From Paecilomyces variotii (lineage: Eukaryota), in assembly GCA_004022145.1 (NCBI GenBank), contig RCNU01000017.1: 64,000 bases of DNA; one strand, 5' to 3'. Positions within the stretch are counted from its first letter, which is position 1. Each line of letters opens with the position of its first letter. The notes beneath the pieces are model-generated. The model was not told where the DNA came from. It did not search any database and was given only the letters and a program-made list of their open reading frames with translations. Below, piece by piece: positions 15,615 through 60,797 of this stretch. Made by a program: the position numbers and the translations under genes.

Positions 15615-16134
15615 CTTATATATTACTTTTAATCGCACGACAACGTCCTGCAAAAAAAGAAGGGCAAATAATTATGTCATTAATATTAGGAGATATAAGA
15701 ACGCAATGCGTCCTAAGGACTGGACTGGGTGTCTTCTGCTAGTTCCTCCGAGCGCGATGCTATCGCAAAGAGAACATCATAGCGGAGGCCGGTCACGTGA
15801 GAGTAATCTTCTGAAATCGCTATTGCTGATTGGAGTAACGGCACCCCGGATCCACCTCCGCAAAATAATCGGAGAACTGGATGATTTCTACACTACGGAG
15901 TATAAACGACGGTGGAAAAGCACGACAGCACCGAAAAGGTTACTTTTGTTGTTTCTGTAATATTAGTTACACAATTTTATCAGGATTAGCGAGAATAGCA
16001 AGACCATAACCCCCCGACCGTACAAAAGATGCCGAAGAGCAGTATAACGAGACTTAAAAACTAAGTCTATTTCACATCAAAGGCATAGCTTCGCCTCCGC
16101 GGTACGAATCACCCACGGCTAGTTATACACTTGT

Positions 16135-18287
16135 TCAAGCAGGAGGGGGAGGTGGGGGAGGCTGGTCACTGGGCGGAGGAGGAGGAGGTCCTTCACCAGG
16201 AGGTGGAGGCGGTGGGCTGCCCGCACCATAATACATAGAACCCATACCAGGTGGTGGAGGGGGAACAGCAGAAAGGCCTGGAGGAGCTCCCATGTTGGGA
16301 GCTGGTGGTGGGAATGCAGGATATCCACCATATCCATAGCCGGCTTGTCCACCGGGGGGTGGAGGCGGGGGCTGCTGTTGCCAGGGAGCGGCTCCAGGAG
16401 CAGCGTAGCCACCGGCATGGGAGCCATATCCATAGTCGGCACCACCGCGGTTCTGCGCCCACGGGGGAGCAGCGTTGTCTCGAGATCCATAGTCGTCGCG
16501 AGAACGGTCCCCGCGACCTCGCTGCTGCCACGGGGCCACATCGCTTGCGGGAGGACCGCGTTGCCACGGCTTCGCATCACGGTCATAACTATCACCATAG
16601 CCTTGATCGTAGCCACCGGGTCCCCCTTCGATCCGTCGGGGAGCTTCGCCGTTTCCAGATGGAGCACCGCCAGAGAGTTCTTGCATGAGTTGCTGGTGTA
16701 AACGTCAGTATCAACCGATGACCATGGATAGTGTAATGGGCATAAACTTACCTCCATCTCACGATCAACTGCATCTCCGCCACCAATAGCACGCTGAGGA
16801 CCACGTCCATAGCCGTTGTTGCGCCAGTCCGTACCGCGCTGTCTATCAGGGCAATCTCTGGCCATATGTCCGGCATTACCGCAGACACGACAGATGATAT
16901 TGGCGGTGAAGTTACGCTGTTCGGGACAGTCGTACTTGCGGTGTCCGATTTGACCGCCTGAAATATCGAATGTTAGAATATGCTTTGTAGAAAAGACAGG
17001 GGAAGACGCCACTTACAGTTCTGGCAAGCCTGGTTCTCGTCATCACGGAGAGTACCGTTGAGGGCGGCTAGCTCTCGGAGCTGGTTGCGCTTGAGCTCGT
17101 TCTGGCCTTCCGGAATCGAAGCAGCCTAACACATTGTTAGTTAGGAAGAAAATAGAGCAAGATCGGCAGTTGCTACGTACCGTTTCAATAACGTTGTGAA
17201 TCAGCTTCTTGGCCTTGTTAACCTTCTCTTCCGTGTCTGCCATGATCAAACAGTGAAGGTCTTCTTCCTGGTTGCTAGTGTGAGCGGCGTCAGATCGACC
17301 CTTTCCTTCCTTGACGGAGCCTTTGCCTCGAATAGCAATCTTGGCTCCGGACTCAGTCTCCATCTTCTTCAATGTGTTTCCACGGGGTCCGATAAGTAAG
17401 CCAACTTTTAGTAGCAAGGAGCTAAGTGTTAGTATTTTGTATCAATTCAAATAGAGCAAAATGTCAAACATCAAACGTAGTTAGCAAGAAACAAGCTGAG
17501 ACATCGACATGACGTCTCCAAGCTCGGCTCGAGCAAAAGGGAGGGAGGGACCAAAAAATGAGAGAAAACGGTTAGGAGTTAGAGGGTTAGTTATCATACT
17601 GAAGTTAATCTCTGGATAGTCATTCACTGGAACATAGACCTTCTCCTGGGTCTTGGTTGGGCGCCTGTAGTCAGAAGGCGGGTGATAGTTAGGAATCATC
17701 TTCATGGCCTTCTCTACGAGCTTGTGGCGCTCATCTTCGAGGCGCTTCCTGTATCGATATTCCCTGGTGTTTACACGTCTTCCGAAATTATCGTACTGGG
17801 GAGGTGGCGACGGAGACCTGTATCTTGTTAGCAAGCAGAATTCACAGAAAGGTATGCTGACAGGCACTTACCGATCGCCATCCGCGGGGACCACATCGTT
17901 GATGCGAAGCTTCTGACTGATCTCCTCAATACGGAGATGCAGAGTGTATGCTTCAAGCTGCTCGTTGGTAAAGTTGGCCATAATCATCGTGGGTAGACCC
18001 ATGAGGCCAGCGGCCTTATTTTCCTGGGCATCTCCCCAACGGTTGCGCTTCTTGCGCTTCTTCACGCCATCAACGGGAGGATCTGCTGTGAAGAAGTTAG
18101 AATCAATTCTTCATAGATTTCAGGGTTATCTTAGATACGTACCTCGAACGGGGCTCCTGCCTCGCTTGACACCATTGTCAGCAACTGCGGATCCAGGCGT
18201 CGAGCCAGCTTCTTCATCACCCCCGAACCTGCGCCGGCCCAGAGGGATGTTGTTAGAACCAGTAATTCCCTGATTACGCCAAGCCAT
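16135..18287 (-). CDS. MSL5: Branchpoint-bridging protein / splicing factor 1 (KH-QUA2, two Zn knuckles, Pro-rich tail)
   Basis: [11 protein letters not shown]2AF-ligand motif, RSPSPPP, KH domain [25 protein letters not shown]2 [16 protein letters not shown], and knuckles [14 protein letters not shown] and [14 protein letters not shown]. Multiple introns. Confidence 0.95.
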
Positions 18288-18811
18288 CTTGTAACTGTTA
18301 GTGTCACACGCGTAGCTGGTCAAGAAGGCCAACTGCAAAGAAATGTTAGAATGGTGGCTTTTAATAGAGCAAAGGGAGATGCGGGCAGGCATGTGGCGAC
18401 CATATTTTGAAACGATATCACGTGAGATTTTGGTGACTAAGCCGGTCGCCCCTCCTTCAGTCAATTCAGTTAACCAACTATTAGGAAGCCATGGTCGTTG
18501 AAGACATGCTGACACGGTTTCCATGGCTCTTAAAGATCATTAGGTCAATAAGCCTGGTAAGAATAATTATACTTTGTTGTTCTACCTATTTCATATGGTT
18601 GCGTTATGATGACCAACCACCGTTCGGCAACAGCAGAGGCACCAGCGTCCTTCCTACGAGTTACAGTAACTAATACTATCAGGTTATGAAGCTTCCAGTC
18701 GTTTATGCGCTGAAACATCTAAAGCATGTCAAACAGACCTCACATATACAGATCACAATGTATGTGATTTTTATCTCATATACACACCACCTACCCAGGT
18801 TCCCTGTGCAC

Positions 18812-60718: not shown

Positions 60719-60797
60719 GGCCATATGGCTCAGTGGTGATAGCGTCTCACTCGTAAGATTGATGAGAAGATCCTTTGTTTGGCTCAAGGTATGGGCT
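60719..60797 (+). pseudogene. Degenerate tRNA-Thr(CGT) gene, probably a pseudogene
   Basis: A-box TGGCTCAGTGG; anticodon stem TCTCA/TGAGA with CGT at 60752-60754 and a 6-nt insert after position 37; acceptor stem GGCCATA/TATGGGC with a G-G mismatch; T-loop TTTGGCT instead of TTCGANT; downstream T-run. Confidence 0.75.

Follow-up and report, generated by a model that had tools for sequence, protein, structure and literature searches.

Splicing factors are known to limit themselves through an unproductive isoform of their own transcript. A fungal case is srp2, the homologue of SRSF5. It has a long retained intron, its transcripts are sensitive to nonsense-mediated decay (NMD), as shown for Neurospora, and its authors state that no notable conservation of the retained-intron sequence is seen between Aspergillus species (PMC4379411). 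In this study, we analysed a 64,000-nucleotide (nt) stretch of Paecilomyces variotii DNA (contig RCNU01000017.1, called the window below) that carries the gene of the branchpoint-bridging protein, BBP/SF1. Its third intron (intron 3) holds an array of branch-point motifs next to a weak donor. The intron and its motifs are conserved, with turnover of the individual copies, its retention introduces a premature stop, and it is abundantly and specifically retained in RNA. Very probably, the retention of intron 3 is functional and regulated, and the copies of the branch motif are its cis-elements. We estimate at roughly 0.55 the probability that it is a conserved regulatory intron by which BBP would limit its own synthesis through negative autoregulation.

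The introns of srp2 and BBP are alike in being unusually long against the fungal trend to short introns, in their sizeable retention and in their in-frame stop. The BBP intron differs by its sharply conserved motif arrays and by the nature of the motif, which is the splice signal cognate to the encoded core factor. BBP/Msl5 binds the branch-point UACUAAC through its KH-QUA2 region and, together with Mud2, bridges to the U1 small nuclear ribonucleoprotein (snRNP) at the donor (PMC4338336, PMC3378887). A related system is that of Quaking, a STAR/KH-QUA2 protein that binds ACUAA and regulates its own transcripts (PMC5695090), and QKI competes with SF1 at ACUAA branch sites (PMC13004596). The BBP candidate would share with it a KH-QUA2 protein, ACUAA-type motifs, an action on its own transcript and an effect on splicing via branch-site-like occupancy (PMC5695090, PMC13004596). 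However, QKI is an accessory regulator in animals, whereas the BBP candidate is a constitutive factor, and its candidate sites are arrayed beside the donor and on the acceptor within a single intron. In the available part of PMC13004596, we found no statement of SF1 self-regulation. In yeast, the RPL7B protein inhibits the splicing of its own intron, for which a ‘zipper stem’ is described (PMC12311795). The BBP candidate would share with it the feedback on the splicing of the factor's own pre-mRNA and a stem in a long intron that joins the splice signals (PMC12311795). The sensor of RPL7B is an RNA structure, whereas that of BBP would apparently be linear splice-signal repeats, with a hairpin that is moderately supported.

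Further parallels come from introns in which look-alikes of splice signals engage the machinery non-productively, so that the intron is kept, as when PTB diverts U2 from the IgM branch point (PMC3964906) and in the intron detention of OGT (PMC12017769). In the BBP intron, the putative decoys differ in being copies of the branch site, placed no more than 30 nt from the donor, and their reader would be the protein that this very gene encodes. Finally, in yeast ACT1 constructs, a cryptic branch site is bound by Msl5-Mud2, and this second branch-site-like sequence alters U2 recruitment (PMC8464032). That extra site is experimental and supports splicing, whereas the sites of the BBP intron are natural, multiple, conserved and tied to retention. 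In the literature that we searched, which leaves most subscription journals and supplements outside, no description of a self-regulated BBP/SF1 intron or of donor-side arrays of branch motifs was found. Nor did we find the BBP intron array described in two screens for conserved RNA elements of fungi (PMC5640933, PMC8216456) or in a Fusarium transcriptome survey. What sets the BBP intron apart is that the factor is the constitutive reader of the branch point, that the cis-element is an array of its own splice signal on both splice sites, and that it is conserved in loci resembling several classes of Pezizomycotina.

The BBP/SF1 gene has its start codon at 18287 and its stop codon at 16137-16135 on the minus strand, and its six GT-AG introns measure, in order from 1 to 6, 57, 54, 195, 55, 59 and 59 nt. 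The spliced protein of 557 residues is letter for letter that of the NCBI entry P0024 from Paecilomyces variotii, so the public annotation agrees with our gene model, and all six exon junctions were found among RNA contigs. A Pfam search with unaltered exons detected PF16275 SF1-HH on exon 3 (E 1.4e-24), PF22675 KH-I_KHDC4-BBP on exon 4 (E 7e-21) and PF00098 zf-CCHC on exon 6 (E 4.6e-11), and the translation contains two CX2CX4HX4C motifs after the KH domain. The KH exon is 97-100% identical to many Pezizomycotina proteins named branchpoint-bridging protein. With an SF1-HH domain, a BBP-type KH domain and a CCHC knuckle all found, the predicted protein is a member of the BBP/SF1 (Msl5/Bpb1) family.

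The anatomy of intron 3 matches what the original prediction had described. The intron is 195 nt long as against 54-59 nt for the other five and splits the KH domain, three CTAAC motifs lie near its donor, and GCTAAC and TACTAAC stand at 17485-17480 and 17434-17428 (Table 1). The three donor-side copies start at +10 (17590-17586), +18 (17582-17578) and +25 (17575-17571) of the intron, and further copies at +116 (17484-17480) and +168 (17432-17428). A triple of CTAAC starts within 20 nt is found only once in the 64 kb, counting either strand, for an expectation of about 0.009 (Poisson, from the window's own CTAAC rate). When intron 3 is retained, the frame ends after 231 residues at the TAA at 17483-17481, where a stop had been predicted.

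Table 1. Features of the BBP/SF1 gene and of its intron 3 (positions in the window)
Feature	Position	Strand	Description or basis
BBP/SF1 coding region	16135..18287	minus	7 exons, 6 introns, 557 aa; Pfam domains, identity to P0024
Exon 3	17600..17817	minus	end of SF1 helix-hairpin domain and first base of the split codon
Intron 3	17405..17599	minus	195 nt, phase 1, splits KH domain (EINF / I / GLLIGPRG)
5′ splice site GTATGA, non-consensus A at +6	17594..17599	minus	donor comparison across orthologues
Array of three CTAAC at +10, +18 and +25, candidate BBP decoy sites	17571..17590	minus	motif positions
Pyrimidine-rich stretch, 86% C/T, directly after the array	17534..17570	minus	composition
Predicted hairpin in the variable mid-intron part	17493..17524	minus	-19.2 kcal/mol for a 47-nt segment
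GCTAAC in mid-intron, with hardly any variation among relatives; contains the in-frame TAA at 17483-17481	17480..17485	minus	alignment
TACTAAC, probable true branch site; distance of its branch A to the 3′ splice site, 24 nt	17428..17434	minus	motif, alignment
ACTTAG, conserved AG 7 nt past the branch A	17422..17427	minus	not seen used as acceptor
ACTAAAAG, branch-site-like motif overlapping the 3′ splice site	17405..17412	minus	motif
Exon 4	17181..17404	minus	KH domain, GLLIGPRG...

Other ways of processing intron 3 were also considered. A stwintron, or nested intron, was rejected: the internal GT sites (GTTTTC, GTCCCT, GTCATG, GTCGAT, GTCTCA, GTTTCT and, twice, GTTTGA) are neither consensus-like nor conserved as donors, and the RNA shows the single junction 17404/17600. 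No junction in the RNA contigs uses the AG 7 nt after the branch A as an acceptor, which would give T-P-C-Y-stop. Likewise, none of them shows exon 3 skipping or a cryptic acceptor with the 5′ array as its branch site, although contigs drop rare forms and low-level use is possible.

Scanning metagenome contigs with the KH exon gave 80 related loci. Seventy-six of them could be mapped; the four others (L015, L021, L028 and L070) start too near the KH exon to show exon 3. The same phase-1 intron is present in 74 of the 76, in 63 distinct sequences of 52-264 nt (median 187 nt), and is missing from L009 and L031. In the test that the original prediction had suggested, the CTAAC cluster proved to be conserved well above the other introns of the gene, in loci whose nearest named relatives belong to several classes of Pezizomycotina. 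At least two CTAAC lie within the first 40 nt in 55/63 distinct introns 3 (none in 2, one in 6, two in 28, three in 26 and four in 1), and 55/63 have four to six over their whole length. The controls were the distinct GT-AG introns 2 (n=55), 4 (n=50) and 5 (n=25) of the same genes, with medians of 50-54 nt: their 5′ part contains no CTAAC (0/55, 0/50 and 0/25, in total 0/130), and over their whole length they have none or one, except for a single intron 4 with two. The 63 distinct introns 3 hold 286 CTAAC in 11,585 nt, as against 418 in the 568,450 background bases (the 80 loci outside intron 3, both strands counted). Pairs within 12 nt are found in 50/63 introns 3 and only eight times in the entire background, and triples within 25 nt in 27/63 and never in the background.

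The intron itself is also maintained: intron 4 is absent from 18/79 loci and intron 5 from 42/74 (four of the cases counted as absent being the transcript-like contigs L001, L005, L009 and L035, discussed below), whereas intron 3 is kept in 74/76. Placed by their best tblastn match to named proteins, which makes the placement approximate, the loci with a cluster resemble Eurotiomycetes, Leotiomycetes, Dothideomycetes, Sordariomycetes and Lichinomycetes-, Lecanoromycetes- or Sareomycetes-like taxa, the class labels being those to which we take the nearest named relatives to belong. Two loci have a short intron 3 without any CTAAC, L023 (97 nt, donor GTAAGT) and L059 (52 nt, donor GTAAGC). Since these clusterless introns are short and have GTAAGY donors, the cluster, the length of the intron and the weak donor go together. 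In L031, introns 2 and 4 are present and intron 3 is gone, which is a true loss. The proteins of L031, L023 and L059 are the most divergent of the set, with 54-63% identity to their best named relative; these may be early-branching lineages, or lineages that abandoned the device.

An alignment (A1) of the window with 61 distinct long introns and 12-nt exon flanks, from which L023 and L059 were left out, revealed five conserved blocks separated by variable sequence. The donor reads GTAYGR. Of the 63 distinct introns 3, 50 have A at position +6, 7 have G, 5 have C and a single one has T, which makes the base non-consensus in 62/63, whereas it is T in 43/55 introns 2, 41/50 introns 4 and 19/25 introns 5; the donor of intron 3 has therefore been kept non-consensus. 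The array follows at a set distance: its first copy starts at +10 in 50/61 distinct long introns and at +9 in 8/61, the second at +18 in 46/61, and a third lies between +24 and +28 in 35/61. The spacing is 7-9 nt in 71/86 intervals, about one BBP site per copy. Copy number and spacers vary by lineage, and the lineage of L024 and L027 has CTGAC: its donor region reads GTATGCTAAC and is followed by two CTGAC in place of CTAAC. That number and spacing change while the motif persists points to selection on the motif and not on one fixed sequence. In L064 and L078, the donor is GTATAC and the first CTAAC overlaps it from +5.

The putative decoy copies are mostly sub-optimal with respect to the branch-site motif: an A precedes CTAAC in 36/147 of them, as against 60/61 at the true branch sites. 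The 30 nt after the array have a mean pyrimidine content of 0.76, compared with 0.59 in the remaining interior (62 long introns). Further downstream, A1 shows a nearly invariant mid-intron (C/G)CTAAC and an invariant or nearly invariant branch-site core ACTAAC, with a median distance of 24 nt between the branch A and the 3′ splice site (62 long introns). A TTTGAT-like block is conserved in many lineages 10-15 nt upstream of the true branch site (A1 columns ~305-316, window ~17455-17445). In the conserved 3′ block, ACTTAGCT comes after the branch site, the first AG stands 5-7 nt past the branch A in 58/62 introns, and the bases that follow the branch site are ACTT in 29/61 long introns. Presumably, ACTT extends the complementarity to U2 snRNA, in which case the true site would be especially strong. 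Finally, ACTAA(A/C)AG overlaps the acceptor, with ACTAA in the last 9 nt of 39/62 introns and a full CTAAC in 15/62. Retention leads to an in-frame stop in 61/62 distinct long introns, that of the window included, and the reading frame enters the intron by a median of 43 codons before the stop (range 17 to 63).

The gene is contained in 18 public runs, 7 of which are recorded as RNA, and we compared four runs from four studies over positions 16050-18450. Runs X9 and X13 are single-organism runs labelled ‘RNA?’, and they are RNA, because spliced junctions are present; X2 is a metatranscriptome. Intron 3 is retained in contigs of X2, X9 and X13, with a depth of the same order as that of the exons, and the five other introns are spliced out in X9 and X13. 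Long contigs of these two runs join the exons across introns 1, 2, 4, 5 and 6, and the binned depths over the five short introns are exactly those predicted for no intron cover at all. For instance, the bin 16941-17021 has a depth of 778.5 in X9, where 2863 x 22/81 gives 777.6, plus a minor contig of depth 4.8, and of 2.2 in X13, which equals 8.11 x 22/81. In both runs, the contigs break exactly at 17404 and 17600, where the path splits in two. The spliced 17404/17600 junction has a depth of 1745 in X9 and 3.7 in X13, and a 255-nt contig with the entire intron 3 a depth of 1326 in X9 (17375-17629) and 9.4 in X13 (17377-17629). Read literally, these contig depths amount to about 43% retention in X9 and 72% in X13, both of them rough figures. 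DNA contamination does not explain the retained form in either run, since the other introns have no cover. In X2, a contig of depth 201 (17280-17618) has intron 3 unspliced, with introns 1, 2, 4 and 5 joined. X2 has no cover at 18399-18450, and a hole in contigs proves nothing.

Some of the related loci point the same way. Four of them lack introns 2, 4 and 5 (L001, L005, L009 and L035). L009 also lacks intron 3 and looks like a fully spliced transcript, while L001 (1853 nt), L005 (2195 nt) and L035 (2254 nt) keep an intron 3 of 207, 245 and 189 nt, respectively. Both L005 and L035 have an open frame that leads from the start codon up to EINF and a second one between GLLIGPRG and the stop, with short flanks of the size of untranslated regions. 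The nearest relatives of L001, L005 and L035 have introns 2 and 4; among Sordariomycete-like loci, to which relatives of the transcript-like contigs belong, intron 4 is found in 8/8 and intron 2 in 7/7 of those mapped. On the simplest reading, L001, L005 and L035 represent assembled mRNAs of three further lineages, in which intron 3 is the sole intron retained. Alternatively, they come from species that lost all introns but this one, which would also argue for its selective maintenance. L001 changes frame exactly at the position of intron 5 (exon 5/6 junction), which suggests an alternative junction or an assembly error.

Additional observations were made on these runs. X1 has six differences from the window, all within the 55-nt intron 4 (17133-17172) and none in the 195-nt intron 3, and X13 has two differences in intron 3 (17487 and 17507), both outside the CTAAC motifs; these numbers are small, and they fit a stronger constraint on intron 3. 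In X2, and in this run only, two contigs, when read in the direction of the gene, terminate with a run of A, at 17602 and 16725, where the genome beyond is not A-rich. The former position is two bases before the end of exon 3, beside the donor of intron 3, and the latter is inside intron 6. These contigs could be adenylated 5′-exon or decay intermediates, products of premature polyadenylation, or assembly artefacts.

Based on these results, we can propose the following mechanism, in which the binding of BBP, its negative effect on splicing and what becomes of the retained RNA are inferred. Intron 3 has one optimal branch site, TACTAAC, in the right place 24 nt from the acceptor, and four to five weaker copies placed where they would be unusable as its branch points: two to four decoys at a spacing of 7-9 nt from +10 of the weak donor, one in mid-intron and one over the acceptor. 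When BBP is low, only the best site would be occupied and intron 3 would be spliced. When BBP is high, the weaker sites would be occupied too, and BBP, probably with U2AF65/Mud2 on the pyrimidine stretch, would cover the acceptor and lie close up to the donor, to which U1 is bound. The array and the pyrimidine stretch could also form a pseudo-3′-splice-site complex, too near the donor to be used. Intron 3 would then stay in the RNA, and the retained RNA would be held in the nucleus or degraded. It would in any case make no functional BBP, because the stop precedes the KH domain.

This proposal agrees with what is expected of an autoregulated splicing factor. CTAAC, which is the BBP site (PMC4338336, PMC3378887), is conserved in the gene's own intron beyond neutral expectation, and an isoform with a premature stop is found as retained-intron contigs in X2, X9 and X13. 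The branch motifs and pyrimidine tract beside the donor have the layout that a putative detained intron with decoy signals would show. The original prediction of autoregulation by unproductive splicing thus gains support from motif conservation, from intron-specific retention and from the premature stop in 61/62 long introns. For the other part of that prediction, in which the retained RNA is removed by NMD, nuclear detention fits at least as well. Rutz and Seraphin reportedly described, in 2000, a role of yeast BBP in the nuclear retention of pre-mRNA.

Several points weigh against negative autoregulation by BBP. U2 snRNP, or a protein other than BBP, could be what acts in trans, and the extra motifs could help splicing, by analogy with yeast, in which Msl5 at a second branch-site-like sequence can support U2 recruitment (PMC8464032). 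The RNA data are assembled contigs, each with one mean depth and with rare forms dropped. X2 has no spliced 17404/17600 contig and its intron 6 is also unspliced, and X1 was set aside as evidence for retention, its contig being unspliced from 16050 to 17756 (introns 3-6) and possibly DNA or another strain. The device is not indispensable, as L031 lost the intron and L023 and L059 are without the cluster. Moreover, the retained form is very abundant, unlike what efficient NMD would leave. This abundance points to detention or to a weak NMD, with the retained RNA being kept and not quickly removed.

A more ambitious proposal is that most Pezizomycotina set the level of branch-point recognition by BBP sites of graded affinity on both splice sites of one intron, and that the retained RNA is a nuclear reservoir or sponge, with 5-6 BBP sites per molecule, which acts as a buffer for free BBP and is available for splicing when needed. 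We regard this as rather unlikely. If it were true, this would be the first core constitutive reader of a splice signal to be titrated by copies of that signal in its own transcript.

Other explanations would keep the motifs and change their role or their reader. The CTAAC extras might act as an enhancer: BBP-Mud2 on the copies beside the donor and in mid-intron would recruit or stabilise U1 and U2 on an intron whose length and weak donor make it ill-suited to the intron definition by which filamentous fungi splice. Retention would then be that of an intron that is hard to splice, and BBP would have a positive effect on its own splicing, or the array would do no more than offset the length of the intron. 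In favour of an enhancer are the weak donor, the long intron and a hairpin that may reduce its effective length; BBP-Mud2 also bridges to U1 snRNP by contacts across the intron (PMC4338336, PMC3378887), and in yeast the rescue of a mutated branch site requires a cryptic one to which Msl5 binds (PMC8464032). However, an enhancer accounts neither for the upkeep of a long, weak-donor intron in 74/76 loci while its short neighbours were lost, nor for a branch-site-like motif on the acceptor. An efficient one should not leave 40-70% of the RNA unspliced, and it would be unusual for a core splicing factor to be under positive feedback; we consider this explanation unlikely. Alternatively, the array might be read through U2 snRNA pairing or spliceosome availability and not by BBP specifically, with intron 3 gauging splicing capacity, or with a pseudo-3′-splice-site that traps U2 snRNP or U2AF in dead-end complexes by the donor. 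The array with its pyrimidine-rich stretch (0.76 vs 0.59; 86% in the window) does resemble a 3′ splice-site region, the diversion of U2 base-pairing from the branch point is a described inhibitory mechanism (PMC3964906), and decoy splice sites have been linked to detained introns (PMC12017769). Yet a general sensor could be in any gene, and the element is in the BBP gene itself, with a motif that is the BBP site. In addition, the decoys are mostly without the A before CTAAC (A in 36/147), the absence of which weakens U2 pairing too. We give this explanation a low probability as a rival; it overlaps with negative autoregulation by BBP, in which BBP and U2 would act successively on the same sequence.

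Intron 3 might also matter for what it encodes or for how it folds. The retained mRNA encodes about 197 residues of BBP and a short tail, and the product, which would keep the N-terminal helix-hairpin region and be without KH-QUA2 and zinc knuckles, might be a modulator. The abundance of the retained form, the median of 43 codons by which the frame runs into the intron and the end of the SF1-HH domain on exon 3 are in line with this. However, we rejected the idea that the read-through tail is conserved as a coding sequence: beyond about 8 residues the peptides no longer resemble one another, frame and stop vary (17 to 63 codons), and conservation tracks the nucleotide motif and not the reading frame. 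A truncated protein also leaves the acceptor motif and the weak donor without explanation. We hold it to be very improbable as the function of intron 3, although it may coexist with autoregulation. Least credible of all, the intron would contain a structured or small RNA (a small nucleolar RNA, a riboswitch-like element or another non-coding RNA), to which the CTAAC copies would be incidental. The intron interior does fold somewhat better than shuffled sequences (mean z -1.22; 15/61 below -2), and in one clade of 10 sequences a two-part hairpin, comparable to that of the window, ends right at the mid-intron motif. In this clade, 90% of the cells are paired, as against 16-61% when the partners are slid, and four pairs have changed on both sides, few compensatory changes, a value that 34/500 shuffles reach. 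The hairpin in the variable middle of intron 3 is thus moderately supported as a prediction. Against a structured RNA, Rfam gave 0 matches in the window at 16000-18500 at E up to 1 and 0 in 12 related loci at the gathering score, and RNAalifold found no structure common to all 62 sequences beyond five nearly invariant pairs. Moreover, the conserved blocks are splice-signal-like motifs and the middle of the intron is variable. The five pairs, predicted at -1.36 kcal/mol and without covariation (A1 columns 331-335 with 369-373), join the branch-site CTAAC (17432-17428) to GTTGG, the last intron base and the first four bases of exon 4 (17405-17401); the exon bases in this pairing are fixed by the protein sequence.

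A few observations concern annotation and neighbouring sequences. Many KH ‘proteins’ of 130-260 residues without SF1-HH in the databases begin in or near intron 3 or the KH exon, and one 132-residue entry matches the open reading frame 17043-17441 of the window. These KH-only entries appear to be gene-caller artefacts arising from the long intron 3, which would account for gene callers often truncating or splitting BBP. Six neighbouring introns of the related loci begin with GC and end with AG (intron 2 of L026, intron 4 of L057, L061 and L069, intron 5 of L068 and L073); with starts such as GCATGT, GCAGGT, GCACGT and GCAAGT, they are probably GC-AG introns. The only Rfam match of the whole window is a tRNA gene at 60719-60797 on the plus strand (33.3 bits).

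In every intron, BBP/SF1 is the first factor to touch the branch point, and for this reason its concentration should affect splicing efficiency and branch-site choice genome-wide. Intron 3 is a concrete candidate for a homeostat of this concentration in fungi, with a defined cis-element made of a few 5-nt motifs that can be mutated singly. The device is found in loci that resemble at least four or five classes of Pezizomycotina, including model, industrial and pathogenic species. It would offer a natural system in which to ask how spliceosome assembly is affected when BBP is bound beside a donor or on an acceptor, and how sites of graded affinity may make a constitutive factor its own sensor.

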